Shown: positions 1 through 21,799 of the stretch, piece by piece
Numbering within the stretch: the stretch's first letter is position 1
Layout: every line of letters begins with the position of its first letter
NCBI GenBank assembly: GCA_903842345.1
Contig: CAIMLR010000017.1
Coordinates: 33,960 to 97,959 of the forward strand
DNA from: an uncultured Myxococcales bacterium
GTDB taxonomy: Bacteria; Myxococcota_A; UBA9042
DNA length: 64,000 nucleotides
Direction of reading: 5' to 3'
Program-made: the position numbers and the translations under genes
Notes under the pieces: generated by a model
The model's database searches: none
The model's input: the letters and a program-made list of their open reading frames with translations, nothing else
What the model was told of the DNA's origin: nothing

Positions 1-382
1 CGCGTTCCTGCGCGACGCCGCCCGCGCTTGGGGCTTGCAGGTTGGCACGGTCTCGCAGCCGCTTGGCACGATCACGCCGGCCAGTCGTCTGGTCGTGGCC
101 GGTGTCGGAGCGCTGCTCGCCGTCTTCGCCGCGTTTGACGGCCGCTCCGGCTTCGATTTCGCCGAACAGGTCACCGTCGTTGCCGACCGGCCGGGTGAGC
201 GGCAGCTGGCTGGCCTCGTGGGCGCCCTGCTCGGCAGCCATCAGGCCGTCAAGCTCTTGGCTCCGAATGCTGCCAAGGACGCAGTCGCGGCCTTTCGCGC
301 GGAACGCATCATCGCGTCGTCGGACGTCTCTGCCGCGGTTACCCGTGCGCTGGACTCTTGGCGGCAAGGGGGCCTCTTCTAA
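1..382 (+). CDS. Hypothetical protein, 5'-truncated at the window edge. The reading frame is open from nt 2. Its stop TAA at 380-382 overlaps the ATG of pglW (TAATG).
   Basis: ORF track 35..382. The frame is open to position 2. Ala/Val-rich with no recognisable motif. Translationally coupled to the downstream pglW. Confidence 0.3.
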   Translation, partial: AFLRDAARAWGLQVGTVSQPLGTITPASRLVVAGVGALLAVFAAFDGRSGFDFAEQVTVVADRPGERQLAGLVGALLGSHQAVKLLAPNAAKDAVAAFRAERIIASSDVSAAVTRALDSWRQGGLF

Positions 383-4749: not shown

Positions 4750-4770
4750 CTTTTTTCGCACCGGAGTCCC

Positions 4771-7700
4771 ATGGCCCGCACCCGCCAGCCCGAGAACCTG
4801 ACCGCAGCGCTCGCCCGTCTCCTGACCAGGACGCTGCTGCCGGACCTGCGCGAGCGCACCAAGCTGCCGGCCGTGGCCAAGGAACTGCAGCGGGAGTACG
4901 ACGACGAGCGCGCGGCCAAGAAGACCGGTGCCAGCTTTATCGACTGGCGCGAGCAGCTGCTGGATCAGGTGGCCGCGGCGTGGGCGCTGTCCTGCGTGTT
5001 CGTGCGCACGCTGGAGGATCGCGACCTGCTGGACCAGCGCCGCATCGCCGGGCCGGGCGCGGATGACAGCCTGCACCTCTTCTACACGCTGGCGCCGAGC
5101 CTGGGCCCGCGCGAGTACCTGCTTGGCGTGTTCAAGGAAGTGTCGCGCCTGCCCGGTGCCGTGGACCTGCTGGGGCCCAAGCACAACGCCGCGTGGAAGC
5201 TGGGGCCGAGCCAGGACGGCGCACGCGCGCTGCACGATTTCTTCCGGGAAGTGGATGACGCGGGCGAGCTCCGCTGGCAGTTCGGCGGCGAGGACACGCG
5301 CTTTCTGGGCGACCTGTACCAGGACCTGTCCGAAGCCGTGCGCGAGCGCTTTGCACTGTTGCAGACGCCGGAGTTCGTGGAGTCGTTCATCCTCGACCGG
5401 ACGCTGACGCCTGCCATTGCCGAGTTTGGCCTGCAGACCGTGCAGGTGCTGGACCCGACGTGCGGTTCTGGCCACTTTTTGCTGGGCGCGTTCGAGCAGC
5501 TGTTCAACCAGCGGCTGGCGGCGACGCCGGGGGCGGAGCTGGGCAAGGTCGCGCTGGCGGCGCTGCAGCAGGTGCATGGCGTGGACCTGAACCCGTACGC
5601 GGTGGCAATTGCGCGGTTCCGGCTGACGCTCCGGTTCTTGCAGGTGACCGGGATTGGCAAGTTGCGGAACGCGCCGCGGGAGTTGGACGAACTGACGGGC
5701 AACCTGGTGGTGGCTGATTCGTTGCTGATCGAGGCTGGCGGCCAGCGTCACGCGGGCGAGCTGTTCCCGTCGGACGAGGGCTGGGGCAAGGACGTGTCGA
5801 TCTTTGCGCTGGATGAACCCGAGGCGGCGCGCGAACTGCTGCGGAAACGGTTCCACATCGTCGTGGGGAATCCGCCGTACATCACCTGCAAGGACGCTGT
5901 GTTGCGGGAGGCGTACCGGGCGAAGTACACGAGCGCGGCTGGCAAGTACGCGCTGTCTGCACCGTTTGCTGAGCGATTCTTTCAGCTGGGCTCGGACGGA
6001 GCGTTTGTCGGGCAGATCACCTCCAACTCGTTCATGAAGCGCGAGTTTGGCAAGTCGCTGATTGAGCAGGTGTTTCCGCACCTAGATTTGACCGAAATCA
6101 TTGACACTTCAGGCGCGTACATCCCTGGGCACGGCACGCCGACGGTGATTCTCGTCGGGCGGAATCGCCCGCCGGTGCACTCGACTGTTTTTGCTATTCA
6201 AGGCAAGCGCGGCGAGCCATCCACGCCGTTAGATCCGGCGTCTGGTAGGGTTTGGACAAGTATCGTGTCGACAATGAGGGCACGAGACGAAGGAGTAGTA
6301 GCGCCTGACGCCGACGAGTTCATCTCCAACGCAACATTCGCCCGAAAGGCCCTCGCGATTCATCCATGGTCGCTCGGTGGTGGTGGCGCCAGCGAACTCA
6401 AGGAAGTGCTCGATCAGACAGCCCACTCCCAGCTCGGAAGCACAACATCGATCGGCATCGGCTCGATCTCAGCCGCGGACGAAGTGCATATTCGGACAGC
6501 TCAGGAATGGGCGCGCGTGCGGATGCCCCCTAAATGGCTTCGTCAGCTCGTCACAGGCGATATCGTCCGGGACTGGCTCGCACCTTCGACGGAGCAAGCG
6601 TGGCACCCATACGGCGACAGCGGCCGCCTCGCACCGCCTGACCCCGCTGAACTGTCCGCGCTGTGGCGATTCCGGACGATTTTGTGGGATCGCGCCACGT
6701 TTTCCGGGCGGAACTACCGATCTGAAGGTCGACCTTGGTACGAATGGCATCAGGTCACGGGGAGCAGGTATGCGACGCCTCTATCCCTCAACTTCGCCTG
6801 CGTCGCTACGCACAACCACTTCGTTCTCGACAAGGGGGGCAGCGTGTTCAACCGCTCCGCTCCTGTCATCAAACTTCCCGCCGACGCCAGCGTCGACGAC
6901 CACTTGGCAGTGCTCGGTGTGCTGAATTCGTCGGTTGCCTGCTTCTGGATCAAGCAGGTGTTCTATCCGAAGGCGTCGGCCTCCAAGGAAGCGTATTCCG
7001 AACCAGGAAAGCCAGAAGATAACCGGTATGACATCGCTGCAACCGGGATGGAATCGTTCCCGATGCCCGATCTTTCCAATCGGTTCCGCGACCCCATTAT
7101 TGAGTGCGCGCGGAGCATCGATCGGCTGGCCCGCACACGCGCCCGCGTGGAGCCGCTCTACATCGTCGCCGGCAACAACGGCTCAGCCCAATCACTGACG
7201 AGAGCACTCGCGGACGCAGATGCCAACTCACAGACGCTCTTGAACGAGATGGTGGCCTGGCAAGAAGAGTTGGACTGGCTGGTTTACTCGGCGTACGGAC
7301 TGACCGGCGACGTGGAACGCATTCGGACGCCTTCGCCAGTCCGCCCAGAGGACCGCCCGTTTGCTTGGGTGAATGACGATGGGCCCGCTCATTTGCCGCT
7401 GGAAAATGCACAGGTCTATCGACAGCGGCGGAAGTTGATTCTTGAGAACCGAAACCTTGCGCTCATCGAGACCCCGGTGTTCAAGCGTCTGTGGCTCGGG
7501 CAACGCGGCATCTTTGGCCACAACAATTTGGACTACAAGCAGCGCACCACTTCGGCGTGCAAAGCATGGCTGCTGGACCGCCTGGAATCCTGGAGCCAGG
7601 ACGACCTCAGCCGCCCCTTCTCCATCCGCGAAGCCACCCAAGCCCTGCAGCACGAGCCCGCCGTCCAAGCCGTTGCCGAAGTCCTCACCGGCTCGTCGGA

Positions 7701-8295
7701 CTACGACCTCGAACGCGTGCTGACCGACCTCGCACTGACCGACGCCGTGCCCGCCATTGCCGCCCAGCGCTACAGCGACATCGGCATGGAAAAGCGCGCG
7801 GCGTGGGAGAAGACCTGGGACCTGCAGCGCAAGGAAGACGCGGGCGAGACGGTCGACATCCCGGTGCCGCCCAAGTACGGCCAGCCCGACTTCCGCAGCA
7901 CGACCTACTGGCAGCTGCGCGGCAAGCTGGACGTGCCCAAGGAGCGGTTTGTCCACTTGCCCGGCGCAGAACGCGATGACGACCCGAGCCCCGTTCTGCT
8001 CTGGGCCGGTGCGGACCACCTGCAGCGCGCGCTGGCGATGGCGGCGCTCTACCAGGACCGCGAGGCGGTGGAAGGCTGGGACAAGGACCGGCTGCTGCCG
8101 CTGCTGGTGGGCGTGGCGGAGCTGGTGCCGTGGATCAAGCAGTGGCACAACGAGCCCGGCCGCGGCGGCCAGCGCATGGGCGAATATTTTGCGAAATACG
8201 TGGAAGACGAGGCGCGCAAGCTGGGCAAGTCGGTGGACGACCTGGCCAAGTGGCGGCCGATGGCGAAGGTGCGCAAGGGGCGCGGGAAGGCGTAA
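4771..8295 (+). CDS. pglX: BREX PglX/BrxX N6-adenine DNA methyltransferase
   Basis: 1174 aa. AdoMet motif I VLDPTCGSGHFLLGAF. Catalytic motif IV VVGNPPYI (NPPY). Size and position are typical of PglX. Confidence 0.9.
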   Translation: MARTRQPENLTAALARLLTRTLLPDLRERTKLPAVAKELQREYDDERAAKKTGASFIDWREQLLDQVAAAWALSCVFVRTLEDRDLLDQRRIAGPGADDSLHLFYTLAPSLGPREYLLGVFKEVSRLPGAVDLLGPKHNAAWKLGPSQDGARALHDFFREVDDAGELRWQFGGEDTRFLGDLYQDLSEAVRERFALLQTPEFVESFILDRTLTPAIAEFGLQTVQVLDPTCGSGHFLLGAFEQLFNQRLAATPGAELGKVALAALQQVHGVDLNPYAVAIARFRLTLRFLQVTGIGKLRNAPRELDELTGNLVVADSLLIEAGGQRHAGELFPSDEGWGKDVSIFALDEPEAARELLRKRFHIVVGNPPYITCKDAVLREAYRAKYTSAAGKYALSAPFAERFFQLGSDGAFVGQITSNSFMKREFGKSLIEQVFPHLDLTEIIDTSGAYIPGHGTPTVILVGRNRPPVHSTVFAIQGKRGEPSTPLDPASGRVWTSIVSTMRARDEGVVAPDADEFISNATFARKALAIHPWSLGGGGASELKEVLDQTAHSQLGSTTSIGIGSISAADEVHIRTAQEWARVRMPPKWLRQLVTGDIVRDWLAPSTEQAWHPYGDSGRLAPPDPAELSALWRFRTILWDRATFSGRNYRSEGRPWYEWHQVTGSRYATPLSLNFACVATHNHFVLDKGGSVFNRSAPVIKLPADASVDDHLAVLGVLNSSVACFWIKQVFYPKASASKEAYSEPGKPEDNRYDIAATGMESFPMPDLSNRFRDPIIECARSIDRLARTRARVEPLYIVAGNNGSAQSLTRALADADANSQTLLNEMVAWQEELDWLVYSAYGLTGDVERIRTPSPVRPEDRPFAWVNDDGPAHLPLENAQVYRQRRKLILENRNLALIETPVFKRLWLGQRGIFGHNNLDYKQRTTSACKAWLLDRLESWSQDDLSRPFSIREATQALQHEPAVQAVAEVLTGSSDYDLERVLTDLALTDAVPAIAAQRYSDIGMEKRAAWEKTWDLQRKEDAGETVDIPVPPKYGQPDFRSTTYWQLRGKLDVPKERFVHLPGAERDDDPSPVLLWAGADHLQRALAMAALYQDREAVEGWDKDRLLPLLVGVAELVPWIKQWHNEPGRGGQRMGEYFAKYVEDEARKLGKSVDDLAKWRPMAKVRKGRGKA

Positions 8296-8304
8296 CGGCC
8301 GGGT

Positions 8305-11300
8305 GTGGGAGAATCGATGACCAAGCTGCGTGAACTGCTGATCCTGCCAGAGACCGTCTCCAAGGGGCAGTTCGTCGTCCGTCTGACCGACGGCGTCGAA
8401 CACCCCGAGGAGCTGCTCAAGGACTACGCCATCACGCCGGACTTGGCCGCGGCCTTTGACAAGGCGCTGAGCCTGACCCGCGAATCGCTGCAGAACGCCC
8501 GCAGCGTCGGCAGCTACATCCACGGCTCGTTTGGCTCCGGCAAGTCGCACTTCATGGCCGCGCTGTCGCTGACGCTGGCGGGCAACCCGACGCCGTGGGG
8601 CAAGCCGGAGCTGCACGCCACGCTGGCAAAGCACGAGTGGGTCAAGAACACCAAGCTGATGCGCCTGCACTTTCACGTCGTCGGCGCGCAGACGCTCGAA
8701 GAGAAGGTCTTTGCCGGCTACCTGGACTTCGTGCAGGCCAACCACAGGGACGCCCCGCTGCCGGCGCTGTTTCAGGACGCCGCGCTCTTTGCCAACGCCG
8801 TTCAGATGCGCAGCACGCTGGGCGACACGCCGTTCTTTGAGCGATTGAACGCCGCGACGCCCAGCGGCAACGGCGGTGGCTGGGGCACTTTCCGCCCGGC
8901 CGCGCGCTGGCATGCGGACAGCTTTGACCAAGCCGTGGCCTCGACGGACGCCCAGCTCCGCGCCGACCTGTTCTCAGCGCTGGTGCGCACGCTGTTCCCA
9001 GCGTTCATTGGCCAACAGTCGCGCTACGTCGGCATCGACGACGGGCTGGCGGTGCTGTCGCAGCACGCGGCCAAGCTCGGCTATCAGGGCGTGGTGCTGT
9101 TCCTCGACGAACTCATCCTGTGGCTGGCCAGTCGCGCCGCCGACCAAACGTGGCTGAGCGCGGAAGCGACCAAGGTCGCCAAGCTGGTGGAAGCGCAGAA
9201 CACCCACCGGCCGATCCCCATCATCAACTTTGTGGCCCGGCAGCGCGACATCTCGGAACTGGTCGGCGACTCCATGGCCGGCGCCAATGCGGTGAACTTG
9301 CGCGATTCGCTCAAGTGGTGGGAAGGCCGGTTTGACACCATCACGCTGCCCGACCGCAACCTGCCCGCCATCATCGCCACCCGCGTCGTCAAGCCGCGCG
9401 ACACGCAAGCGCGCAACCAGCTGAACCAGGCGTTCAGCAAGTTCCAGGGCGGCGCGCGCGCATCGTGGGCCACGCTCTTGGGCGAGGAATGGTCGACGCA
9501 GGACTTCCAGCAGATCTACCCGTTCTCCCCGGCGCTGGTGCAGGGTCTCGTCGCGCTTTCGCACTACCTGCAGCGCGAGCGCACGGCGCTGAAAGTGCTT
9601 ATGGAAATGCTCGTCCAGCACATGGAGGATTTCAAGCTTGGCGACCTCGTCGGCGTCGGCGACCTGTTTGACGTGCTGGCCGGCGGCGAAGACCCGATGG
9701 ACGGGCGGATGCGCGACCTGTTCGACGGCGCCAAGAAGCTCTACAACAACGAGCTGCTGCCGCTCATCCAGAACCGCAACAACACCACGACTGAGGCGGT
9801 CTGCCAGCGCAAGCGCGACGACCACCCGATTGCGCTGGGCTGTTCCAACTGTCCTCAGACGGCGTGCCGCAGCGACAACCGCTTGGTCAAGACGCTGCTG
9901 CTGGCCGCGCTGGTGCCGGAAGTGCAGGTGCTCAAGCGCCTGACAGCGTCGCGGCTTGTGGCGCTCAACCATGGCACGCTGGAGGTGATGATCAAGGGGC
10001 GCGAGGCCAAGGACGCCGTCATCCGCCTGCGCGACTACGCCGCAGAAGTCGGCAAGCTGCAGATTGGCAGTGAGGATGACCCGACCCTGGCGATTGCGCT
10101 GCAGGGCGTGGACGTGAAGCCGCTGCTGGACCAGGAGCGCGTGCAGGACGGCCCAGGCGCACGGCGGCGGCGTCTGCGCGAGCTGCTGTTCCAGGCGCTG
10201 CAGTTGAACGACACGCTGGCGGAGCTCCCGTACAGCCTGGAGTGGCGCGGCACGATGCGCAAAGGCACAGTGCGCTTTGGCAACGTGCGGGAGATGACCG
10301 ACTCCGATCTGGACACGCCGACTGGCGACGACTTCCGCGTGGTCATCGACTACCCGTTTGACGAGCCGCAGCACCGTCCCAAGGAGGACGAGGAGCGCGT
10401 CGGCTTGTACCTGGAGAAAGGCAAGACGGCGCGGACTGTGGTGTGGCTGCCGAGCTTCTTCTCGGACAAGCTGCAGCGCGACCTGGGCGACCTGGTGGTG
10501 GTCGAGTACGTGCTGAAGAACGAGAGTCAGTCACTGGCGCTGTTGCGGCCCGAGGACCGTGCGCGCGCGGCGTCCGAACTGCAGAGCCTGCGCAACCAGA
10601 AGCAGGAGCGCCTGAAGCGGGCGCTGGCGGCGGCGTATGGCGTGGCGACGATGCAGGAAGGCGATCTGGACGAGGAGAACCGCGTCTCGCACAACTTCTA
10701 CCTGCTGCGCGAGGACCTGAAGGTGCAGCCGTCCTTGGCGGCGGACCTGAAAGCAGCGATGGATGGCGCGATTGGCGACATGCTGGCGCAGTGGTACCCG
10801 CGGCATCCGAAGTTCAGCGAACGCCTGTCGAACATGAAGCTGACCAAGGCCCTGGAGCGATTCCAGGCAGCGGTCGACGCCGAAGGCCAGCGGATTGCCG
10901 TGGACAGGGCCGAGCGGCCACAGTTGGACATCTGTCAGGACGCGCAACTGCTCCACGTGACCGACACCTGGGCGAGCGTGCATGCGGCGGTTCTGCAGCA
11001 GGTCGATGGCCGGCTGTCGGCGCGCGGGATGCTGCGGCCGATGGTCAAGCAGGTGGCGGACGCGTTTGACCCGGACGGCTACTTTGGCCTGCAGCGCGAC
11101 GTGCGCGACTTCTACGTGCTGGCGTACGCCGCGTGGAACGCCCGCCAGCTGCGGCTGGATGGCGAGCTGTGCAAGGACCTGAGGATCGGCCAGTTGCCGC
11201 CCGACGCGGAGCTGGAGAAGCCGCTGCTGCCGTCAGCCACGGAGTTCCAGAGCGCGCTTGAGAAAGCCGGCAAGCTGTTCGGCATCACGATTGCCGGCCG

Positions 11301-11952
11301 CGCGCTGAACCCCAAGAACGTCAACGACTTTGTCGAGAACCTGCAGAAGGCGCGCAAGGTAGCGGTGACGCAGTCGGCTGGCGCAGTAGCGCAGTACCTG
11401 CTGCAGCGCTCGGCGTTCTTCAATCTCGACCCCGAGCCCGCGCGGCTGCGTACGGCGAACTCGGCGCTACAACTGCTGGATGAACTGGACGAGCGGGACG
11501 TGGTTCTGGTGGTCCAACGCCTGGCTGCGTTTCAGCCGGAGACTTCAGCCACGGCTCTGGCCAAGCACTTCACCGACGCGCTGAAAGTGGCGAGCGTCCT
11601 GCAAGAGCGCCTGCCGTTTGACCTGTTTGCCGACGTCATGTCGCTCACGGACCGCCCGGACGCCACGGAGCTGCTGACCGCACTGCGCGCTGCGCTGGAA
11701 GCTGATCAGGTGCAGACGGAGCTGAAGACACAAGTTGACCAGTTGGCCAACCGGGCGCGACAGCTGCTGCGCAAGCCGATACCGCCGCCGCCCCCGCCAC
11801 CGCCGCCGCCCCCGAAGGGCAAAGGTGGCCAAGCGCGCGGTGATGCGGCTGCCATCCAGGCTGAAGTGGCCAAGGCGATTGCGGCGCTAGGAGAAGCCAA
11901 CGAAAACGAGGAGCTGACAGTTGAGTGGCTTCTGGTCCGGAGGGATAGTTGA
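8305..11952 (+). CDS. pglY: BREX PglY/BrxC-type P-loop ATPase
   Basis: Walker A YIHGSFGSGKSHFMAAL near the N-terminus. About 1200 aa. An 11-residue poly-Pro tract lies near the C-terminus. GTG at 8305, or ATG at 8317 preceded by GGGAGA. The stop overlaps the pglZ start (TTGA). Confidence 0.85.
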   Translation: MGESMTKLRELLILPETVSKGQFVVRLTDGVEHPEELLKDYAITPDLAAAFDKALSLTRESLQNARSVGSYIHGSFGSGKSHFMAALSLTLAGNPTPWGKPELHATLAKHEWVKNTKLMRLHFHVVGAQTLEEKVFAGYLDFVQANHRDAPLPALFQDAALFANAVQMRSTLGDTPFFERLNAATPSGNGGGWGTFRPAARWHADSFDQAVASTDAQLRADLFSALVRTLFPAFIGQQSRYVGIDDGLAVLSQHAAKLGYQGVVLFLDELILWLASRAADQTWLSAEATKVAKLVEAQNTHRPIPIINFVARQRDISELVGDSMAGANAVNLRDSLKWWEGRFDTITLPDRNLPAIIATRVVKPRDTQARNQLNQAFSKFQGGARASWATLLGEEWSTQDFQQIYPFSPALVQGLVALSHYLQRERTALKVLMEMLVQHMEDFKLGDLVGVGDLFDVLAGGEDPMDGRMRDLFDGAKKLYNNELLPLIQNRNNTTTEAVCQRKRDDHPIALGCSNCPQTACRSDNRLVKTLLLAALVPEVQVLKRLTASRLVALNHGTLEVMIKGREAKDAVIRLRDYAAEVGKLQIGSEDDPTLAIALQGVDVKPLLDQERVQDGPGARRRRLRELLFQALQLNDTLAELPYSLEWRGTMRKGTVRFGNVREMTDSDLDTPTGDDFRVVIDYPFDEPQHRPKEDEERVGLYLEKGKTARTVVWLPSFFSDKLQRDLGDLVVVEYVLKNESQSLALLRPEDRARAASELQSLRNQKQERLKRALAAAYGVATMQEGDLDEENRVSHNFYLLREDLKVQPSLAADLKAAMDGAIGDMLAQWYPRHPKFSERLSNMKLTKALERFQAAVDAEGQRIAVDRAERPQLDICQDAQLLHVTDTWASVHAAVLQQVDGRLSARGMLRPMVKQVADAFDPDGYFGLQRDVRDFYVLAYAAWNARQLRLDGELCKDLRIGQLPPDAELEKPLLPSATEFQSALEKAGKLFGITIAGRALNPKNVNDFVENLQKARKVAVTQSAGAVAQYLLQRSAFFNLDPEPARLRTANSALQLLDELDERDVVLVVQRLAAFQPETSATALAKHFTDALKVASVLQERLPFDLFADVMSLTDRPDATELLTALRAALEADQVQTELKTQVDQLANRARQLLRKPIPPPPPPPPPPPKGKGGQARGDAAAIQAEVAKAIAALGEANENEELTVEWLLVRRDS

Positions 11953-14723
11953 GCCAGGACGTCCCGCACCTGAGCACGCCCGAGATCGGCGACGAGTTGG
12001 CCCGCATCCACGGTGGCAAGCCGCACGCGATGCTCGACACGGTGATCTTTGGCAGCACGCAGCCGGCCGAAGTCATTGTGCGCTTGGGCAACCGCGACCA
12101 GATATTTCGCGTAATACCGGCGACGTGTGAGCTGGCGCTGCGCGATGCCCTAGCCAACCGCGGAGATACGCCGGTCGCGGCCGTCATCGACTTTGGCGTC
12201 GACCTGCCGCTGGACATCAGTTGCCGCGTCGCCCAGATGCGGGTCCACACGCCCGACCGCGCCCAGCGCCTCGTGAGCCGTCTGGTCGATTTGGAGCCGG
12301 GCCAACGCATCGACGCCAGCGCGCCGTTGCTGCGCAGTGCGCTTGGCAAGGCGATCCTGTCGGGGATTCCGGTCCGGCAGCGGAAGGCCACTTGGCCGCT
12401 CATCGGCGTCGGCGATGCCTGGCGCGCCGTCCTGGCTGAAACGGCCGGGCTGCCGCTCGACACGACGCTGACCTTTGACCGCGTCCTGGAGCACGTTGCG
12501 ACGACGCAGAAGCCGGCGACGCTGACCGCCATCCTCGACGCCAACAAGGATCGCCGCAGCGAGTTCGATGTCTGGTTTACCGGCGAGGTCGGTGCCCCGG
12601 CGCTGCAGGCGTGGAAAGCGTGGGAGCGCGGCGACGGCGGCAAGGTGGCGGCTGTGGCCGTGCTGCTGCGCGCCGCCCGCGACCACTACGCCAGCAACCC
12701 GTTCCTGCAAGGCTGGCTGACGCTGCCGCTGAAAAGTGCGGGCGTCAGCATCGACGGTGAGAAGGACGTCACCATTTGGGCCGATGCCGGTCAGAGCCTG
12801 CTGGTGCGCTTGGATACGAGCGGCAACACCTGGCAGGTCCAGCAGCTCATCGACGCTGCGTCCGAGATGGCCTCCGAGGAAGTCGTGCGCGAGCAGCTGG
12901 CGGACAGCAACTGGCTGCCGTTCGCGTTCGAGATCCAAAAGCGTCGGCTCGCCAAGGCGCTCACTGACGCTGGCGCGACCGAGTCGGCACAGGCACAGAA
13001 AGATGCCCGCGAGGCACTCAAGGCCCTGCGTGCCCATCGCCTCGCCAATCACCATGCCAATGCCGGCCTGCTGGCCCGAGGCGAAGCGGCCATCCGCCTA
13101 CTGGCATGTCTAACGCGCGCGGAGGTCAGTCGTCCTGTTGGCTGGGAAGCCGTCGCGAGCTACGCATCCGAATACGCGCAGGAAGGTGGCTACGTCGACC
13201 GCGCCCGGCGTGCCCTGCGAGGTGAGAACGGCACCGACGAGCTGGGCGACGCGATGCAGGACGTGTTGCGGCGAGCCGACAAGGCCCGTGACGCGCTGGA
13301 CTTGGCGTTTGCGCGAAGCCTGGCTGCGTGGGCAAACGCGGGGCGACCGGCTGCGGGCGTGCTGCCCATCGAGATGGTGCTGGAGCGGATGGCCGCGCAG
13401 TTCCTCGACCAAGGCCCGGAACGCAAGCTGCTGGTGCTCGTACTCGATGGCTTGTCGTGGACGGTCGCGTGTGAGTTGCTGGAAGGCTGGGTCTCACGCG
13501 AAATATCACCGGTGCGCTGGAACCCGGACGGCTTCGCAGCAGGCACGCTGGTGCCCGTGCTGGCCGCGCTGCCCACGGCGACTGACGTCAGCCGCGCGGC
13601 GCTCTTTGCCGGGAAGCGGATGCAGTCCGGTGTCACGCACTACACGGCGGGCGACACGGACCGCTTTGCCCATCATCCGGGCCTGTGTCGGCATGTTACG
13701 CGAGCGGGCGGACCGACGCTCCTGCTGCGCGCCAAGCTGGAAGGATCGGCGACGGCCATTTCGCCCGAAGCGCTGCGGCTGCTGCAGAGCGCGGACCGCG
13801 TCGTAGCGTGCGTGGTCAATGCAATCGACGACGACCTCAGCGGCACGACCCAAGCCAAGCTGTCCTATGGTCCGGACGACGTGCCGCTGGTGCGGGAACT
13901 GCTGTCCCAGGCGTTTGCCGCCGGCCGTCACGTACTGCTGACCTCCGACCACGGCCACGTCCCAGGCGCTCGGCTGAAGTACCGGGCGACGACAAACAAC
14001 AAGGGCGCGCGCTGGCGGCAAATCGCTCCGGGTGAACAGCCTGCGGCTGATGAGATCGCGCTGACCGGCGACTGCGTATGGCTTCCGCCCGGCGCAGAAC
14101 GTGTGGCGCTGCTTGCCAGTGAGACGGCTCGCTTTTCGACATCCGCGCTGGCCGGTGAACACGGTGGAGCGTCGCTGGCCGAGGTCGTGATCCCGGCGGT
14201 GATTCTGGGCAACAGCGAGTTGGACCGGCAGTTCCGCGACACCGACCCTGCCTTGGAGCAGATTCCGCTGCGGCAGCCGACGTGGTGGCAGCTTGAGGGC
14301 TGGGTAGAAGAAGCGCCAGTCAAGCCAGCAAAGACCGCGCCTGCTCCGACCAAGAAGAACGTCATGGCGCTGCCCGGGCTTGTCGACGTCGCCCCGCCAG
14401 TGACCGACCCCGCGAAGAAACCGTCGCACGTCCGGCAGCTGATCCTCGAGTCCAAGCTGTTCGATTCGCTGACGGCGTACCAACGCGACCAGATGCAAAC
14501 GCGCGTCCTGCCGTGGCTGGAGGCCATCGAAGGTGCAGGCGGGCAGATGTCCGCGGACCGCTTTGGCCAAGCCGCTGGGCTCCTGCCCACACGCGTCGGC
14601 GGTGCTGTGTCGCTGATGCAGGAGTCCATCAGCATGGACGGGTACGAGCCGGTGACGTTCGACGCGACCACGCGCGAGCTCAAGCTGCACATGGACCTGC
14701 TCAAACAGCTGTGGGGAGGCTAG
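11949..14723 (+). CDS. pglZ: BREX PglZ alkaline-phosphatase-superfamily protein
   Basis: PglZ-type motifs LLVLVLDGLSWTV and LLTSDHGHVPG. 924 aa from TTG 11949. Alternative in-frame ATGs at 12027 and 12237. Confidence 0.85.
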   Translation: MSQDVPHLSTPEIGDELARIHGGKPHAMLDTVIFGSTQPAEVIVRLGNRDQIFRVIPATCELALRDALANRGDTPVAAVIDFGVDLPLDISCRVAQMRVHTPDRAQRLVSRLVDLEPGQRIDASAPLLRSALGKAILSGIPVRQRKATWPLIGVGDAWRAVLAETAGLPLDTTLTFDRVLEHVATTQKPATLTAILDANKDRRSEFDVWFTGEVGAPALQAWKAWERGDGGKVAAVAVLLRAARDHYASNPFLQGWLTLPLKSAGVSIDGEKDVTIWADAGQSLLVRLDTSGNTWQVQQLIDAASEMASEEVVREQLADSNWLPFAFEIQKRRLAKALTDAGATESAQAQKDAREALKALRAHRLANHHANAGLLARGEAAIRLLACLTRAEVSRPVGWEAVASYASEYAQEGGYVDRARRALRGENGTDELGDAMQDVLRRADKARDALDLAFARSLAAWANAGRPAAGVLPIEMVLERMAAQFLDQGPERKLLVLVLDGLSWTVACELLEGWVSREISPVRWNPDGFAAGTLVPVLAALPTATDVSRAALFAGKRMQSGVTHYTAGDTDRFAHHPGLCRHVTRAGGPTLLLRAKLEGSATAISPEALRLLQSADRVVACVVNAIDDDLSGTTQAKLSYGPDDVPLVRELLSQAFAAGRHVLLTSDHGHVPGARLKYRATTNNKGARWRQIAPGEQPAADEIALTGDCVWLPPGAERVALLASETARFSTSALAGEHGGASLAEVVIPAVILGNSELDRQFRDTDPALEQIPLRQPTWWQLEGWVEEAPVKPAKTAPAPTKKNVMALPGLVDVAPPVTDPAKKPSHVRQLILESKLFDSLTAYQRDQMQTRVLPWLEAIEGAGGQMSADRFGQAAGLLPTRVGGAVSLMQESISMDGYEPVTFDATTRELKLHMDLLKQLWGG
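12101..12120. repeat. Short AT-rich motif copy (GATATTTCGCGTAATACCGG) of the GTATTT..GTGATAC family, inside the annotated 5' end of pglZ
   Basis: Matches the copy at 58996-59026 (ATATTTCGCGTGATAC) in 16 of 17 positions. Confidence 0.4.
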
Positions 14724-14726
14724 GCC

Positions 14727-16058
14727 ATGTCCAACGTCTCCCTACTTCGCCGCCAGGAGATTGTCGCCGCGCTGCGCAACGGCACCGTCCCCGAGTTCGG
14801 CTTTGACCAGCTCGCCGTTGGCATCGAGCGCTTCTCGACCGCCATCGACGAGGAACTGGAGCGCGTGGCCCGCGGCCGCGGCGGATTCAAAGCCGTGCGC
14901 GGCGACTGGGGCGCGGGCAAGACGTTCTTTAGCCGATGGTTGCAGAATCGCGCGCGTGCCCAAGGCTTCGCCACGGCCGAGGTGCAGATCTCCGAGACGG
15001 AGACGCCGCTGTACCGCTTGGAGACCGTCTACCGGCGCGCGATGGAGCACTTGCGGACGCGCGAGTGGAACGACGGCGCTTTTCGCGCGCTGGTGGAGCG
15101 CTGGTTCTTCTCGCTGGAAGAGGAGGTGCTGGCGCAGCCGGGTGCGCCGACTGACGAGAGGCTGGTCGCCAAGGCAGTGGCCGAACTGCTGGAAGGCCGC
15201 CTGAACGCGGTCAGCGCCACGCACCCGCAGTTCGCCGCTGCGCTGCGCGCCGTCTACAAGGCCCGCATGGACGGAGACCCGGCGACCGCCGACGGCCTGC
15301 TGGCGTGGCTGATGGGCGAACCGCATGTGGCCGCCAGCGTGAAGCAGCGCGCCGGCGTCAAAGGCGAGGTCGACCACTTTGCGGCGACCGGGTTCCTGCG
15401 CGGCCTGTTGTCCGTCCTGAACCAGACGGGCCGGCGCGGACTGGTGCTGGTGCTGGACGAGGTAGAGACGATCCAGCGGATGCGCTCCGACGTGCGCGAG
15501 AAGAGCCTGAACGCACTACGGCAGTTCCTGGATGACTTGGACGGCGGTCGCTACCCAGGGCTGTACCTCGTCATCACCGGCACGCCCAGCTTCTTTGACG
15601 GCCCACAAGGCGCCCGCCAATTGCCGCCGCTGGCCCAACGCCTGCACGTCGACTTCGGCGCGGACCCGCGCTTTGACGCCACGCGCGCCATCCAGATCCG
15701 CCTGCAGCCGTTCGACCAGGCGCGACTGTTGGAAGTGGGCCAGAAGGTACGCGCCCTCTACCCGACCAAGCACCCTGAACGCGTAGCAGAGCGGCTGTCC
15801 GACGACGTGCTGGTCGCGCTAGCTCGCAAGGTGGCCGGGCAACTCGGCGGCAAGGTCGGTTTGGCGCCACGGCTGTTCCTGAAGAAGCTCGTCGGCGACG
15901 TGCTGGACCGCATCGAGGAGTACGAGGACTTCGACCCGGTGCAGCACTACCAGCTCACCGTGTCTGCGTCGGAGCTGTCAGACGTGGAGCGCGCCGCGGC
16001 CGGCATCGAGCGCAGCGTCGACGACATCGAGCTTGACCTGAGCGGCGGCGACACGTGA
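14727..16058 (+). CDS. brxD: BREX BrxD ATP-binding protein
   Basis: Walker A RGDWGAGKTFFSRW. 443 aa, typical BrxD size. ATG 4 nt after the pglZ stop. Confidence 0.8.
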   Translation: MSNVSLLRRQEIVAALRNGTVPEFGFDQLAVGIERFSTAIDEELERVARGRGGFKAVRGDWGAGKTFFSRWLQNRARAQGFATAEVQISETETPLYRLETVYRRAMEHLRTREWNDGAFRALVERWFFSLEEEVLAQPGAPTDERLVAKAVAELLEGRLNAVSATHPQFAAALRAVYKARMDGDPATADGLLAWLMGEPHVAASVKQRAGVKGEVDHFAATGFLRGLLSVLNQTGRRGLVLVLDEVETIQRMRSDVREKSLNALRQFLDDLDGGRYPGLYLVITGTPSFFDGPQGARQLPPLAQRLHVDFGADPRFDATRAIQIRLQPFDQARLLEVGQKVRALYPTKHPERVAERLSDDVLVALARKVAGQLGGKVGLAPRLFLKKLVGDVLDRIEEYEDFDPVQHYQLTVSASELSDVERAAAGIERSVDDIELDLSGGDT

Positions 16059-18157
16059 CGGCGTTCGAGCGCTTGAGCCCCGCGATGCAGTACCAGATCG
16101 TCAACGCTCTGGGCTTTCAGTCGCTGCGCCCGGTGCAGGAAGTCGCGATTCCGCCGATTCTGGACGGCGCCAACTGCGTGGTGCTTGCGCCGACGGCGGG
16201 CGGCAAAACAGAAGCGGCGTTCTTCCCGCTGCTCTCGCAAATGGACACGCACGGCTGGCAGCCGGTGTCGGTGCTGTACGTGTCGCCGATCCGCGCGCTG
16301 CTGAACAACCAGGAGGAGCGCCTGCGCAGCTACGCCACCGTGCTGGGGCGTCGTGTGGCGGTATGGCACGGCGACGTCTCGCAGCGGGACAAACGCAAGT
16401 TCCTGCAGGAACCCGCGGACATCCTGTTGACCACGCCTGAGTCGCTGGAAGTGATGCTGATGAGCAGCAAGGTGCCGTCGCGCAGGCTGTTTGCCGGTTT
16501 GCAGGCGGTGGTCATCGACGAGGTGCACGCGTTTGCCGGCGACGACCGCGGCAGTCACCTGATGGCCGTGCTGGAGCGCCTGTGCCGTTTCTGTGGCCGC
16601 GACGTGCAGCGCATTGGACTGTCGGCGACGGTTGGCAACCCGGAGGAAATCCTGACGTGGCTGCAGGGCTCGTCGACGCGGCCGGGCGTGCTGGTGTCGC
16701 CGCCACGGCCACCGTCCACGCCGGAGATTGTCATCGACTACGTCGGCACGCTGGAGAACGCCGCGCGGGTTATCGCGCAGATGCATCGCGGCAAGAAGCG
16801 GCTGGTCTTTCTGGATAGCCGGGCAGGCGTCGAGTCGCTGGGGCAGCACCTGCGGGATCTGGGCGTGGACACGTACGTGCTGCACTCGTCATTGGCGCCG
16901 GATGAGCGGCGCAGGAGCGAAGCGGCGTTCGCCGAGCGGCAGAACTGCGTCATCGTGGCGACCAGTTCGCTGGAGTTGGGCATCGACATCGGCGACCTCG
17001 ACCATGTGCTGCAGATTGACGCGCCACGGACGGTCGCCAGCTTCCTGCAGCGCATGGGGCGGACCGGGCGCCGTGCCGGGGCGACGTCGAACTGCACGTT
17101 CCTGGCCACGGACGATGACGCGCTGTTGCAGGCCGCGGCCCTTTTGCGCCTGTATCGCAATGGCTTCGTCGAGTCGGTAGTGCCGGTGACGCGTGCGTTT
17201 CACATCCTCGCGCACCAGCTGCTGGCGCTGGGGCAGCAGGAGCAAGGCATCCCGCTGGCCGACTGGTGGGCGTGGGTCGGCCAAGCGGCGCCCTTCAAGG
17301 ACATCACCGCCGACGAACGCACCGCGCTCCTCGCGCACATGATGGCGGAGCAGATTCTCGTTGAGGATGGCGGCCGTCTGAGCCTCGGCCCCCAAGGCGA
17401 AAAGCTCTACGGCGGAAAGAACTTCCTGCCGCTGTACTCGGTGTTCGACACTGCGGACAGCCTGGATGTCTGCTACGGCCAGCGTATCATCGGTAATATC
17501 GAGTCCACGTACGTCGAGCAGCAAGGCGCGGGCGACCTGACGTTCACGCTCGGGGCGCGGGCCTGGCGCGGGTTGTACGTCGATTGGCAGCGGCATCGCC
17601 TCTACGTGGAACCGGCAACCCACGCCAATGCGCCATCGTGGCGAGGTTCGCCCGCGTTCCTCTCGTCCGAGCTGTGCGGCGCCATGCGGGACGTGCTGCG
17701 GGACGAAGGTCCCGCACCGGAATGGTCCAAGCGAGCAGAGAGCCAGATGGATGCGGTGCGCAAGACACGTCTGCATCAGGCGGACGCAGACGGGCAGCTG
17801 CTGCCGGAGACGGACGGGCTGTCGCTCTGGACGTTTGCGGGCGGGCGGGCCAACCATGTGGTGGCGAAGGTGCTGCAGGAGCTGATTGGCGAGAAGGTGA
17901 CTGCAGACAACCTGCGGATCAGGTTCAGGAGCGGCGCTGCGGACGTGGAGAAAATTCAGGGTGCGATGCAGGTGCTGGCAGAAGAGCACCGGCCAAACCG
18001 TGAGGATGCCCTGCGGGTGGTGGTGAAGATTGCCAAGGCGAAGTTGAGCAAGTTCCAGCCCTGTTTGCCGCCGGAGCAGGAGGCGGAGGTGCTGGTGGGA
18101 CGGTTGGTGGATTTGGGGGTGGTCGGAGATTTGGTGCGGCGATTGGCGGCGGGGTGA
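16055..18157 (+). CDS. brxHI: BREX BrxHI Lhr-like DEAD/DEAH-box helicase
   Basis: Walker A VVLAPTAGGKTEAAF. Motif II VVIDEVHAF. Helicase C motifs QRMGRTGRR. The GTG start overlaps the brxD stop (GTGA). Confidence 0.85.
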   Translation: MTAFERLSPAMQYQIVNALGFQSLRPVQEVAIPPILDGANCVVLAPTAGGKTEAAFFPLLSQMDTHGWQPVSVLYVSPIRALLNNQEERLRSYATVLGRRVAVWHGDVSQRDKRKFLQEPADILLTTPESLEVMLMSSKVPSRRLFAGLQAVVIDEVHAFAGDDRGSHLMAVLERLCRFCGRDVQRIGLSATVGNPEEILTWLQGSSTRPGVLVSPPRPPSTPEIVIDYVGTLENAARVIAQMHRGKKRLVFLDSRAGVESLGQHLRDLGVDTYVLHSSLAPDERRRSEAAFAERQNCVIVATSSLELGIDIGDLDHVLQIDAPRTVASFLQRMGRTGRRAGATSNCTFLATDDDALLQAAALLRLYRNGFVESVVPVTRAFHILAHQLLALGQQEQGIPLADWWAWVGQAAPFKDITADERTALLAHMMAEQILVEDGGRLSLGPQGEKLYGGKNFLPLYSVFDTADSLDVCYGQRIIGNIESTYVEQQGAGDLTFTLGARAWRGLYVDWQRHRLYVEPATHANAPSWRGSPAFLSSELCGAMRDVLRDEGPAPEWSKRAESQMDAVRKTRLHQADADGQLLPETDGLSLWTFAGGRANHVVAKVLQELIGEKVTADNLRIRFRSGAADVEKIQGAMQVLAEEHRPNREDALRVVVKIAKAKLSKFQPCLPPEQEAEVLVGRLVDLGVVGDLVRRLAAG

Positions 18158-18158
18158 G

Positions 18159-18180
18159 GGGTATTACTGGAAATACGGCC
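18159..18180. repeat. Short AT-rich inverted-repeat motif (GGTATTACTGGAAATACGG) 2 nt after the brxHI stop
   Basis: GTATT-N6-AATAC hairpin-capable. Near reverse-complement match to the 60491 copy. Confidence 0.45.
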
Positions 18181-18189
18181 GGGAACGAG

Positions 18190-18612
18190 TCAAGCCGGAT
18201 CCTGCGGCGGCCAGTCTCCAACCGCTGGTGGGTCAAAGTAACGATCGAGCACAGCAGCCTCGACGCTGGGCTGAGAGCGCAAATAGTCACTAAGGATTTC
18301 GCGGAACGTGCCGCGCCCCAACTCGCTGCGAATTGTTATGTCAATGAAGTTGCTCTTCTTGAGGTTGCAATCGCCGCATAGGTACTCGAGGTTGCTCCAA
18401 CTCGTCTCGCCGAAGAGTGAATATGGCCATCGGTGATCCGCCTGCATTGACGAGAGTCCCACATGATCAATGACTTTTCCACATGGACGGCAAGTCACGA
18501 CCGGGTAGGTGTATCCGACCAACTTCTTTGCGTGCTGACGAAACCACAGATCCCTCCAACTGCTCGGGAACGTCCGCTGAAGGGGGTCACATGTTGGCAC
18601 ATTGTCATCCAC
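18190..18612 (-). CDS. HNH endonuclease
   Basis: 140 aa. HNH motif CRPCGKVIDHVGLSSMQADHRWPYSLFGETSWSNLEYLCGDCNLKKSNF (Cys box plus DH..N..H). Overlaps the upstream DUF262 gene by 8 nt. Confidence 0.8.
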   Translation of the reverse strand: MDDNVPTCDPLQRTFPSSWRDLWFRQHAKKLVGYTYPVVTCRPCGKVIDHVGLSSMQADHRWPYSLFGETSWSNLEYLCGDCNLKKSNFIDITIRSELGRGTFREILSDYLRSQPSVEAAVLDRYFDPPAVGDWPPQDPA

Positions 18613-20188
18613 GGCGCTCTATTTCCTCACAGATTTGAAATGTTGCGTCCACCTGCTGCAATTGCCCGGGCCACTTCCCTTTCGCAATGGGATACTTGAT
18701 TTTGAACTTGTCCTCGATGTCCTTGGGACCGGACGTCAGGAATTCACTCGTCAGGCGCCACTGGCGTTCTGTCATGCCGTCAGGCGACTTGAACGCTTCC
18801 GCAGCCGCAGCAATGAACAGAGCCACCTTGCGCGCTGAACTGACCGTCAGGCTAGGAATCTTTGCCGTCTTGATCGTATTGAACCAGAGCTCAAAGTCAG
18901 CAAACCACCGTTGCACGACCGATAGTGTCGGTAAGAATACGGCTCGATTTTCACCTGAACTCTCGTACAATGCTTGCGCGCAGAACAAGTCGAGAACTGA
19001 GGTGGTCGTCCTGTCGTATCGAATGCGAACCGTGTCTCGTGTTTTTTGGGTCATCAGCGCATCATAGGCACGCCGCGGTCGCTCAGCGAGCATTCGAGCG
19101 ATTACGTAGTACAGGAACATTTCAGATGGCGCTTGTCCGACCGCCTGCCGGCTATCTCCCCACCAAGCGGCCCACGGCTGATGGTCCTTCCATGGAAAAA
19201 CCACACCGTGTCCCTCCGCCGCGGCAATCATGCGGGCGCCGGCCGTTCCCGCCGGTTCTCTGATACCCGCAAGACGAATCAGAGATACCCGAGCACAATC
19301 GCCGAAAGACGCCAAGCGGAGGTCGTGCGCGCTGAGAGGGACTCCCTCTTCATTGATCCGGCGAAAAATCAGCAGGCGCAGACTGAGATCAAGATTTTTC
19401 GGAAGAACGATAAGGTTGATCACGTAATCCCGGATTTGTTCTTGGATGTCCGGAGGCAACTCGCTGAAATGCTTTCCTTGAATCTGCGCGCCAACGTTCT
19501 CGGCATACTCAACGTCGTTTTCTGACGCCAACTTGAATTGATCCCTCATGAAGGAGTCTAGGGTGGTCAGCCGCTGTTGGCCATCAATAACTTGTCTGAC
19601 TTCAATTCCCGCCGAATCATCCTCAGGATACACGAGGATAGGTGGCACGGTAAGGTTGTTGATTACGGATTCAATGAAAAGCGATCGCTTCTCGTCACTC
19701 CACTCCGCCGCGTCGCGCTGATACGAGGGGATCTTGTACTTTCCTCGTCTCATCGACCCCATAATGGTGGCGACGTTCAGCGATTGTGCTGTGGTTGCGG
19801 ACGTGACGAGCGGCATGAAGGTGGGCATTTGTCCCTCGCGGTTGCCATTGGTAATTGGCGTAATTGATGGCACGACCGCGCCAACGCTAAGTGACGTTGA
19901 TCGCGCGGTCACCGCTTGAACAACAGGTGCGGTCGAGTCCGAACGTCCCGATCCTAGCGCTGCCTGCAGGTAATAGCCCCACGACCCGGCGGCGCGGATG
20001 ACCCGTCGTGCCGGATCAGCGGACACCACCGACAATCGAGACCGAATGCTGCCGTTCGAGTACCCCTGCGCCGCGAAATCCGCATCTGCGTTCAATCGTC
20101 CGATGACATCGGTCGCGCTCATGCGCTCGGCGATATCAGATGACAAAAACTTCTCAGCGCATTGTTCGATCCAGTCGTCCATGTTCAT
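18605..20188 (-). CDS. DUF262 (ParB-like nuclease/GmrS N-terminal family) protein, the partner of the HNH nuclease in a split GmrSD-like type IV restriction module
   Basis: DUF262 motifs KYKIPSYQRDAAEW and IDGQQRLTTL. The C-terminal half has no HNH motif; the nuclease is supplied by the downstream ORF. The ATG at 20188 is preceded by GGGAGA; the track start is TTG at 20203. Confidence 0.75.
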   Translation of the reverse strand: MNMDDWIEQCAEKFLSSDIAERMSATDVIGRLNADADFAAQGYSNGSIRSRLSVVSADPARRVIRAAGSWGYYLQAALGSGRSDSTAPVVQAVTARSTSLSVGAVVPSITPITNGNREGQMPTFMPLVTSATTAQSLNVATIMGSMRRGKYKIPSYQRDAAEWSDEKRSLFIESVINNLTVPPILVYPEDDSAGIEVRQVIDGQQRLTTLDSFMRDQFKLASENDVEYAENVGAQIQGKHFSELPPDIQEQIRDYVINLIVLPKNLDLSLRLLIFRRINEEGVPLSAHDLRLASFGDCARVSLIRLAGIREPAGTAGARMIAAAEGHGVVFPWKDHQPWAAWWGDSRQAVGQAPSEMFLYYVIARMLAERPRRAYDALMTQKTRDTVRIRYDRTTTSVLDLFCAQALYESSGENRAVFLPTLSVVQRWFADFELWFNTIKTAKIPSLTVSSARKVALFIAAAAEAFKSPDGMTERQWRLTSEFLTSGPKDIEDKFKIKYPIAKGKWPGQLQQVDATFQICEEIERRG

Positions 20189-20308
20189 GACAGAATCTCC
20201 CAAGAGTCAAGTCGTACACGTCCGTCCGCTGTGAACGTGTCGAGCGCATCCACGCACGAGTCTAGGCCCGGCACCCGGCTTCGGTCAACCGCGCAGAAGG
20301 ACGAAGGA

Positions 20309-20635
20309 CTACCACCTTCGGCGCCGGCCCCCCTTGTCGCCGAGCACGCCAAAACGCAGCAGCTCATCGCGATCCAGCAGATACTCCTCGCCCTCCTTCA
20401 AGTACTTGGCGATGAAGCGCATCTCCATCTCGCCCGCCTCGTGCTCGTCCTTGCGCTCGGTCAGCGACTCGATGGGATTGCCGTTCGTGTAGTTCATGCC
20501 CTCGACTTGCGCGGCCTTCAGGTTGTTGATCTGCGCGTCATACGTCGCAGCGCGTTCGTGATGAAACTCGGCGCTCGCGATGCACAACTCGCGTAGTTCT
20601 GCGGTGGGGATGCAAACTTTCAGTCCTTCAATCAC
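20309..20635 (-). CDS. Hypothetical protein (108 aa)
   Basis: ORF only. No recognisable motif. Lies in a defence island. Confidence 0.4.
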   Translation of the reverse strand: MIEGLKVCIPTAELRELCIASAEFHHERAATYDAQINNLKAAQVEGMNYTNGNPIESLTERKDEHEAGEMEMRFIAKYLKEGEEYLLDRDELLRFGVLGDKGGRRRRW

Positions 20636-20677: not shown

Positions 20678-21211
20678 TCAGCGGCTGCGCCCACGGCCGA
20701 CGGGCACCAAGCCCATCATGCGTTCGCCGTTGTGGTAGTAGACGATGAAGGCGCGGCAGCCGTCGGCCCAGAGCTCGTCGCGGCCGGCCGACATCCCGTT
20801 GTTGGCAGAGGCGATGTTGGTGAACACGAAGTCGCGGCCGGCGTTGAAGGCGGCGACGACCGCGGCGACGTTGCGGCAGTTGACCGGCGCGCGCAGTGTC
20901 GCGCGTGGACCGCCGTTCGGCGTGCCGGACTTGAACTCCGGACAGACATCCGGGTCCAGGTCGACCGGCGCGTCGATCGGCTGGTCGGGCTTCTGCTCGC
21001 GTTGTGTCTGCTCCTTGGGCGTCGGCTCTTCGTCGAGGCCCAGTTCCGAGAAGTCGACGTTTTGCAGCATCGCGACGATGACTCGCCCCATAACGCCACC
21101 ATCCGCTTCGCTCGACGCCCTGGGCTGGTCTACGTCGTCTTCGAACAGGCAATCGAACTCGTCTGCATCGTCGCGCGGCATGGAGCTGGGTTGATCTTCG
21201 GTCTTGGACAT
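20678..21211 (-). CDS. Hypothetical acidic protein (177 aa)
   Basis: ORF with an Asp/Glu-rich N-terminus. Same orientation as the 108-aa ORF, 43 nt apart. Confidence 0.4.
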   Translation of the reverse strand: MSKTEDQPSSMPRDDADEFDCLFEDDVDQPRASSEADGGVMGRVIVAMLQNVDFSELGLDEEPTPKEQTQREQKPDQPIDAPVDLDPDVCPEFKSGTPNGGPRATLRAPVNCRNVAAVVAAFNAGRDFVFTNIASANNGMSAGRDELWADGCRAFIVYYHNGERMMGLVPVGRGRSR

Positions 21212-21380: not shown

Positions 21381-21799
21381 CATCGTCGTCTGCCAAAAAG
21401 CCCTCGTTCTATTTGTGCGAGCAAGAAATCGGCAAATTGTGCATTCAAGGTCTTCTTCTTGACGCACAGGCGATTTCCACTTCTTGCACGACGATTATTC
21501 TTTCGCCCCTTCGCAGCAGATTTCCTCCTCGCCTCGTGTTTCTTTCCGCGTCGCATTTCTGCTTTTTGCGGCGCGAATGCTTGCGGAGCGGTTTCAAGGC
21601 CCAATTGCCGCCGGACCTGGGCTTCCGCCGTGCCGGGCCACGCCAGCGCCCCCAAAAGTCGATGGAAGCATCCTCCCGGCCCCCAGCGACAACGACTGTC
21701 GCATTCGCGCCCGAGCCTCCACGTCCCGCTTGTGCGAAACCGGGCCATCGACAAGACTCGCCGCCAGCGCGAAGCGCGCACGCAACAGCGAGGCCGACG

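Follow-up and report, generated by a model that had tools for sequence, protein, structure and literature searches.

A DUF262 protein and a stand-alone HNH nuclease as a two-gene module beside a BREX type 2 operon

What unites a large DUF262 protein and a small HNH nuclease that are encoded side by side, next to a bacteriophage exclusion (BREX) operon, in an uncultured Myxococcales bacterium? The two genes lie on the minus strand of a 64-kilobase (kb) stretch of contig CAIMLR010000017.1, here called the window, and a first-pass annotation had labelled them a split GmrSD-like type IV restriction enzyme that might work in concert with its methylating neighbour. Such a reading has precedents. In GmrSD, BrxU and SspE, DUF262 is a nucleoside triphosphate (NTP)-dependent sensor that controls a His-Me nuclease (PMC10952713, PMC12065111, PMC12137116), and BrxU combines BREX with type IV restriction (PMC8565348). 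The answer that we favour, with a probability of roughly 0.55, is that the pair is a self-contained, horizontally acquired two-gene cassette for nucleic-acid-targeting defence, in which an NTP-binding sensor and an HNH effector would make up a two-chain analogue of GmrSD-type enzymes.

Both genes are well delimited. The open reading frame (ORF) scan places the larger one at 18605..20203 on the minus strand, giving 532 amino acids (aa) from TTG 20203 or 527 aa from ATG 20188, the latter with a Shine-Dalgarno-like GGGAG 8 nucleotides (nt) upstream; ATG 19828 (M121) is a further alternative start. Taken from ATG 20188, the gene spans 18605..20188. The HNH gene follows on the same strand at 18190..18612 and encodes 140 aa from a GTG start, with an alternative GTG at 18600. 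Its GTG sits within the final codons of the DUF262 gene (GTGGATGA), producing an overlap of 8 nt (18605-18612), and the two genes are translationally coupled. They converge on brxHI, which ends at 18157 on the plus strand, and the 32-nt spacer between the two stop codons (18158..18189) marks one edge of a cassette with a low G+C content at third codon positions (GC3). ORFs, Pfam and PADLOC thus agree with the first-pass description of a DUF262 protein of about 527 aa and a separate, overlapping HNH protein of 140 aa that run towards the BREX operon.

Is this adjacency more than chance? Metagenome loci found through the HNH alignment carry a DUF262 homologue immediately upstream in 23 of 23 cases, ending a few nt from the HNH start, while in all nine loci reached from the DUF262 side an HNH gene comes next downstream, at identities down to about 30%. 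The latter loci include P0002, P0014, P0017 (two contigs), P0063, P0099, P0107 (Gemmata sp. JC673) and plasmid pDRET01 of Desulfohalobium retbaense, whose DUF262 protein shares 30% identity with that of the window and likewise has an HNH gene downstream. At P0099 (locus L087) the gene caller missed a 90-aa HNH ORF (9233-9505) that shares 4 nt with the end of the DUF262 gene; in most loci the overlap between DUF262 stop and HNH start is 4, 8 or 25 nt. The longest contigs are identical in length for at least 25 DUF262/HNH cluster pairs, and the divergence of one protein tracks that of the other (correlation of pairwise identities over nine loci, r = 0.63, Mantel p about 0.007). The DUF262-protein search returned 206 relatives of about 410 aa at no more than 62% identity, all of the 120 listed being 520 aa long or shorter. 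On the HNH side, a single-sequence search with the window protein found only its own truncated gene call and a profile of locus orthologues was used instead, yielding 134 clusters at E <= 0.001; the 120 listed are all stand-alone proteins of 83-180 aa save one 232-aa form. The pairing was present in each of the loci examined, which number over 30, are unrelated and come from environmental, genomic and plasmid sequences. Carriers of the pair include Planctomycetota, Thermodesulfobacteriota, Pseudomonadota, Melainabacteria-like metagenome-assembled genomes and plasmids.

The DUF262 and HNH genes therefore form a stable two-gene module, neither a chance adjacency nor the product of a recent gene fission. 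That they are unrelated neighbours, or that the HNH protein is a selfish homing endonuclease lodged beside a ParB-like gene, is extremely improbable. HNH genes are often mobile, and public annotation separates these two genes and truncates the HNH protein; the reciprocal co-occurrence, the overlap, the co-varying divergence and an HNH motif specific to the family nonetheless speak against this idea. The family is almost entirely environmental and under-annotated. A genome-contig scan with the DUF262 alignment was dominated by the generic DGQQR pattern, returned distant DUF262 proteins only and was uninformative on the family. Phage records gave partial DUF262-domain matches only and viral contigs gave two weak non-family matches to the HNH profile, and carriage of the pair by phages finds no support in these searches.

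The 232-aa form, P0195 (L070 1016-1714; L083 4412-4939), joins a partial DUF262 region (about window residues 183-262) in frame to the HNH protein. No other of the 120 HNH relatives listed is fused, and this one has the appearance of a derivative of the pair that arose by in-frame deletion.

Which of the two proteins cuts? The DUF262 protein has a single Pfam match, GmrSD_N/DUF262 at residues 146-300 (E = 1.3e-25), within a ParB/DUF262 NTPase-type domain of about residues 124-300 (19289..19819, minus strand). It contains VIDGQQRLTT, and in an alignment of 76 homologues Q157-R158, D202-G203-Q204-Q205-R206 and F275/R277/N279 are invariant; the QR, DGQQR and FxxxN NTPase motifs expected of the GmrSD/BrxU family are all intact. 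The rest of the chain, residues 301-527 (18608..19288, minus strand), is an all-alpha, tryptophan-rich C-terminal domain that presumably serves as a DNA- or partner-binding module. W333, W339, W343, G351, Q352, W435, W477 and W506 are invariant here, and this half of the alignment holds no conserved constellation of His, Glu and Lys and no conserved His. Residues 291-527 (the C-terminal 237 residues) have no Pfam match even at E <= 10. An AlphaFold2 model built on the 76 homologues, with a predicted local distance difference test (pLDDT) score mostly above 90 from residue 124, consists of a ParB/Srx-type alpha/beta domain followed by helices only. Foldseek detects no nuclease fold in it, and BrxU is the sole match at E < 1e-3.

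The large subunit, then, carries no nuclease of its own. The first-pass annotation had made its proposal contingent on the DUF262 protein lacking a DUF1524 domain and had asked whether its C-terminal half hides a nuclease fold; on both points the Pfam result, the helical model and the Foldseek comparison bear it out. Sequence databases add little more: phmmer searches of both proteins against PDB sequences returned nothing, profile searches against the PDB gave marginal matches to BrxU, SspE and the Gme HNH protein plus spurious ones to C2H2 zinc fingers, and no NCBIfam model matches either protein.

The small protein is the nuclease. Pfam HNH (PF01844) matches residues 41-88 at E = 1e-8, HNH_5 also matches, and the corresponding beta-beta-alpha-metal core (18349..18492, minus strand) contains C41xxC44, D59-H60, N74, C79xxC82-N83 and K86. 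All of these residues are invariant or at least 90% conserved among 77 homologues. Two CxxC pairs of zinc ligands, a D-H general base, the Asn/Asn metal and structural residues and a beta-beta-alpha fold are the marks of a classical PF01844 HNH nuclease, and each is present; judged by these motifs, the active site is intact. The structural model, which is of high confidence, resembles active HNH nucleases and is closest to the ZRANB3, Cas9 and McrA type in a comparison that also covered Cap5, the retron HNH, GVE2 and the Gme HNH. The nuclease therefore belongs to the classical zinc-finger HNH branch and is neither a detached GmrD nor a DUF1524 protein.

Public gene calls reduce the HNH protein to 85 aa (P0121, start M56), which removes the first CxxC, and one ENA call gives the 140-aa form (P0247). 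The longer form is right, since the alignable part of orthologues at other loci begins at residue 8 and these share a motif at residues 8-28 (18529..18591, minus strand; R13, F15, P16, W19, F24, R25), part of which is modelled as a helix (residues 18-27, pLDDT above 90). This family motif is a candidate docking element for the DUF262 partner.

Could the pair still be a GmrSD or BrxU enzyme that was literally split by gene fission, specific for modified cytosines and complementary to BREX? A DUF262 protein with DGQQR and a nuclease of the His-Me superfamily do adjoin a BREX operon, and BrxU sets a precedent for that combination. The founding 'split' GmrS/GmrD pair was later recognised as one gene. 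Several observations make this explanation improbable. The same chain lacks the C-terminal DUF1524 domain with the DHIYP-type motif that defines GmrSD and BrxU, and a separate GmrD/DUF1524-type partner is lacking as well; the nuclease is instead of the classical CxxC/DH/N/CxxCN kind. The best PADLOC match of the DUF262 protein is to Menshen NsnA (8.7e-35, 118.7 bits), over profile positions 47-210 of 385 and hence to the DUF262 part only, as against 14.2 bits for BrxU/HEC-05, 25.9 for HEC-06 and 17.8 for SspE. Comparison with BrxU and GmrSD, which the first-pass annotation had recommended, thus confirms a shared DUF262 domain and at the same time places the window protein nearer to NsnA, and the label 'split GmrSD' is too specific. 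Taken together, the hidden Markov model (HMM) scores suggest that the DUF262 protein lies outside the GmrSD/BrxU clade and the HNH protein outside DUF1524.

The relationship with BREX is no closer. The neighbouring operon is a complete BREX type 2 (Pgl) system on the plus strand (358..18157), comprising pglW (358-4749), pglX (4771-8295), pglY (8305-11952), pglZ (11949-14723), brxD (14727-16058) and brxHI (16055-18157). PglW, PglX, PglY (BrxC-PglY), PglZ, BrxD and BrxHI all have full-length PADLOC matches, supported by Pfam. GC3 is 0.61-0.67 in the cassette versus 0.81-0.87 in brxD, brxHI, two small upstream ORFs, a WYL gene and an AAA gene; the cassette is of foreign composition and horizontally acquired. 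BREX genes are absent from all other pair-bearing loci examined, so the conserved association expected of a BrxU-like BREX accessory is not seen. A near-identical sister BREX type 2 locus (L090), with a BrxD in the same 90% cluster, lacks the pair and carries other cargo after brxHI. In BREX type 2 islands, the position that follows brxHI appears to serve for cargo exchange, and the presence of the pair beside BREX reflects such exchange within a defence island, not a dedicated accessory role.

The first-pass annotation had offered two functional readings of this neighbourhood. 'Layered defence' is plausible only in the generic sense of a shared defence island, because the BREX neighbourhood is not conserved, the sister locus bears other cargo and the cassette is foreign. 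As for phages that mimic BREX methylation, selection against them is improbable: the host chromosome bears the same PglX mark, and a nuclease that targeted this mark would turn on its own cell.

In the sister locus, the cargo after brxHI (13546-17153) consists of a ResIII/Helicase_C protein, SLFN_AlbA_2 and HATPase_c_4. Two extra genes, a 132-aa ORF and one for a Peptidase_M78 protein, lie between pglX and pglY (1721-3534). Both positions may thus be cargo slots.

If BREX is not its partner, what company does the pair keep? Its neighbours at other loci include a TIR protein with DUF6414 (one locus), toxin-antitoxin genes with a UvrD helicase (one locus), an integrase, an excisionase-like helix-turn-helix protein and a TIR protein (the P0063 locus), and a NERD-UvrD helicase. 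Because neighbours elsewhere are of the defence or mobile kind, with housekeeping genes only occasionally present, the pair is best regarded as an independent mobile defence-type cassette. At one further locus (L063 3033-6406) the genes directly after it encode an AAA ATPase and a subtilase of the Peptidase_S8 family (IetAS-like), echoing an IetA-like ATPase about 2.7 kb from the window pair.

The same survey bears on whether the pair might be the restriction half of a modification-protected, type II- or type III-like system that cuts unmodified DNA and has its methyltransferase elsewhere. Here the two proteins have a common, if weak, match in PADLOC, the 372-position model 'REase_II' PDLC03418, to which the DUF262 protein aligns at 36-158 and the HNH protein at 327-371 (3e-7 and 2e-5). 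They match opposite ends of the model, which implies that a fused DUF262-HNH protein has been catalogued as a type II enzyme. At L087, moreover, the pair lies between an N6/N4 methyltransferase (N6_N4_Mtase, upstream) and a ResIII protein. That locus is the sole exception: the window cassette contains no cognate methyltransferase, most loci have none within 5-8 kb, and the only methyltransferase of the window is the BREX PglX, in a compositionally distinct operon. We consider this explanation very unlikely. L087 (5284-12717 of a 6.9-megabase contig) also carries, downstream, an AAA_15/DUF3696 (NsnB-like) ATPase, a C5 methylase and a GHKL ATPase, the pair being embedded there in another restriction-like system.

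How might the cassette act? The sensor, in which ParB/DUF262 is joined to the Trp-rich helical domain, would recognise some trait of the invading DNA, perhaps a modified base, and binding or hydrolysis of an NTP would serve as its switch. The DUF262 protein would then recruit or activate the HNH protein in trans through the N-terminal motif of the latter, and the DNA would be nicked or cleaved. Translational coupling to the DUF262 gene would supply the HNH protein stoichiometrically. Complex formation, control of effector by sensor, a DNA target, a non-self signal and an anti-phage phenotype are all proposed by analogy with GmrSD, BrxU and SspE. Dependence on DNA modification would likewise be a matter of analogy only, and the DUF262 sensors of SspE, DndB, Menshen and Dazbog follow a different logic.

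Much of the same evidence would suit a toxin-antitoxin or abortive infection system, in which the HNH protein is a toxin held by the DUF262 protein and released on infection to degrade host and phage DNA, with death of the cell. The effector is small, stands alone and is translationally coupled 3' of a larger partner; the pair occurs in mobile contexts rich in toxin-antitoxin genes; most loci have no adjacent cognate methyltransferase; and the Menshen system, to which the best HMM match (NsnA) belongs, has been modelled as a chain of sensor, transducer and toxic effector. Yet the sensor-first gene order and the intact NTPase motifs fit activation equally well, and the precedents of GmrSD, BrxU and SspE act directly on foreign DNA. 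We judge the toxin-antitoxin explanation possible but unlikely; the data are compatible with it as with the proposed DNA-targeting cassette, from which it differs only in target and outcome.

Several findings weigh against the proposed cassette. The likeness to solved GmrSD-family proteins, in sequence and in structure, is confined to the ParB/DUF262 core; for BrxU the profile match covers 27 positions (E = 1.8e-4) and the Foldseek TM-score is 0.18. No relative of the C-terminal domain could be recognised, which makes its role in binding DNA or a partner a guess, and no feature of the sequence points to the DNA property that would be sensed. A defence context, though frequent, is not universal: two loci have housekeeping neighbours, one a glucose-6-phosphate dehydrogenase gene and the other histidine biosynthesis genes. 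The family is also rare, with about 200 clusters on the DUF262 side and 134 on the HNH side among 5.8 billion.

A bolder form of the proposal can be put forward only tentatively, with rather less than an even chance of being correct. The pair may represent an unnamed, phylum-spanning family of two-component defence systems in which a ParB-type NTPase bears a new, Trp-rich helical domain that detects some property of DNA and sets a minimal HNH protein to work in trans. It would then be a missing link between Menshen-type sensor/effector systems and the single-chain GmrSD-type enzymes, possibly with a new substrate specificity.

One part of the DUF262 protein stands apart from the family. Homologues span only about 76% of the query and begin near M121 (ATG 19828, with GAGGGA upstream), the usual N-terminus of the family, and residues 1-120 (19829..20188, minus strand) form an extension peculiar to the window lineage. 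It has no Pfam match and no homologue except itself among 1.84 billion representatives, and its pLDDT in the AlphaFold2 model is low. Its frame is open while both other frames hold stops, its GC3 is that of the cassette, and all seven public copies of the window locus are 100% identical. The extension may plausibly be translated. A winged-helix likeness (HARE-HTH or Mrr_N-like) was considered for it and dropped, as no tool supported it.

The flanks of the cassette offer few further signals. A sigma-70-like promoter match, TTGACC-18-TAGACT (20259..20288, minus strand), is a match to the consensus only and lies within the 105-nt spacer 5' of the DUF262 gene. Searches revealed no terminator-like hairpin between the convergent stop codons (32 nt), no attachment-site-like direct or inverted repeats around the cassette, and no tRNA or Rfam element across the whole 64-kb window. 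Two small minus-strand ORFs follow 5' of the DUF262 gene, at 20309-20635 (108 aa) and 20678-21211 (177 aa). Neither has a Pfam, NCBIfam or PADLOC match, both are absent from other pair loci, and their GC3 is host-like (0.81-0.85), for which reason they are placed outside the low-GC3 cassette.

Farther upstream of the pair, 21413-29342 on the plus strand begins with a WYL/WCX (BrxR-like) regulator, followed by seven further plus-strand ORFs. These encode a double-AAA IetA/CDC48-like ATPase (22871-24916), a calcineurin-like phosphoesterase (25028-25753), an unknown protein, a ThiS-like ubiquitin-like protein (26687-26935), two unknown proteins (350 and 203 aa) and a ThiF/E1-like protein (28719-29342). 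The cluster resembles a ubiquitin-like (Ubl/E1) conflict operon under WYL regulation, adjacent to BREX; PADLOC has no model for it beyond the ATPase. After it come DUF6908 and Rad52/Rad22-family genes (29499-30602, plus strand), and these two hint that the whole defence region resides on an integrative or phage-derived element.

DUF262 proteins are recurrent and poorly understood sensors in phage defence, found in GmrSD, BrxU, SspE, DndB, Menshen, Dazbog and PD-T4-2. With sensor and nuclease on separate chains, the pair would be a clean system in which to study control of a ParB-type NTPase switch, the surfaces through which the signal passes and the role of the helical domain that follows DUF262; the two components could be mutated, titrated and purified independently. 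Cultured carriers exist, namely Gemmata sp. JC673 and Desulfohalobium retbaense DSM 5692 with its plasmid pDRET01, and together with the strict separation into two proteins they provide a useful experimental handle. Defence-system finders would under-detect the pair because gene callers routinely truncate the HNH protein (85 versus 140 aa) or miss it, as at L087, where it was left uncalled.

How, finally, does the pair relate to the systems that are already known? A DUF262 protein with a separate classical HNH protein was not found described as a system in the literature, and the pair matches no named defence system that was found; the Menshen study states that the DUF262-centred systems in its neighbourhood survey are 'not limited to' the named ones. 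The single-chain DUF262-DUF1524 enzymes GmrSD, BrxU, SspE and HEC-06 differ from the pair in that the nuclease of the window is separate and of the PF01844 rather than the DUF1524 type, and the helical region that follows DUF262 has no detectable sequence relation to GmrSD, BrxU or SspE. BrxU, moreover, is embedded in its BREX operon, whereas the window pair lies outside and converges on it. GrwAB and TgvAB of Vibrio cholerae, which are two-protein GmrSD-like systems, likewise depend on two co-encoded proteins, but they comprise a full DUF262-DUF1524 enzyme and a second DUF262 protein, where the window has one DUF262 protein and a bare HNH. Fused DUF262-HNH proteins follow the same two-domain logic as single polypeptides, while the window family is consistently split.

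DUF262 systems without DUF1524 are also known, and here Menshen, Dazbog and PD-T4-2 provide the comparison. Menshen is the nearest in layout: NsnA has an optional N-terminal extension, a ParB-DUF262 domain and a helical C-terminal domain (ParBDB), and the window protein appears to be built in the same way, its model too being helical at the C-terminal end; in both cases the sensor lacks a nuclease and the effector is a separate gene. The two differ in their partners. The window has no NsnB ABC-ATPase (AAA_15/DUF3696) and no inPIN-type NsnC; an HNH gene is adjacent instead, with the convergent brxHI beyond it and two small proteins without family matches upstream. PD-T4-2 and Dazbog are, like the pair, multi-gene DUF262 systems. 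PD-T4-2 needs both A and B: the second-best PADLOC match of the DUF262 protein is a partial one to PD-T4-2_A (4.3e-12), and neither the HNH protein nor the neighbours match PD-T4-2_B at E <= 0.01. Nor does the HNH protein match any Dazbog model at that threshold, or a partner model of Menshen or the GmrSD-type systems in PADLOC. The pair is therefore best filed as a two-component variant within the theme of DUF262 sensors and His-Me nucleases, a permutation of known parts.

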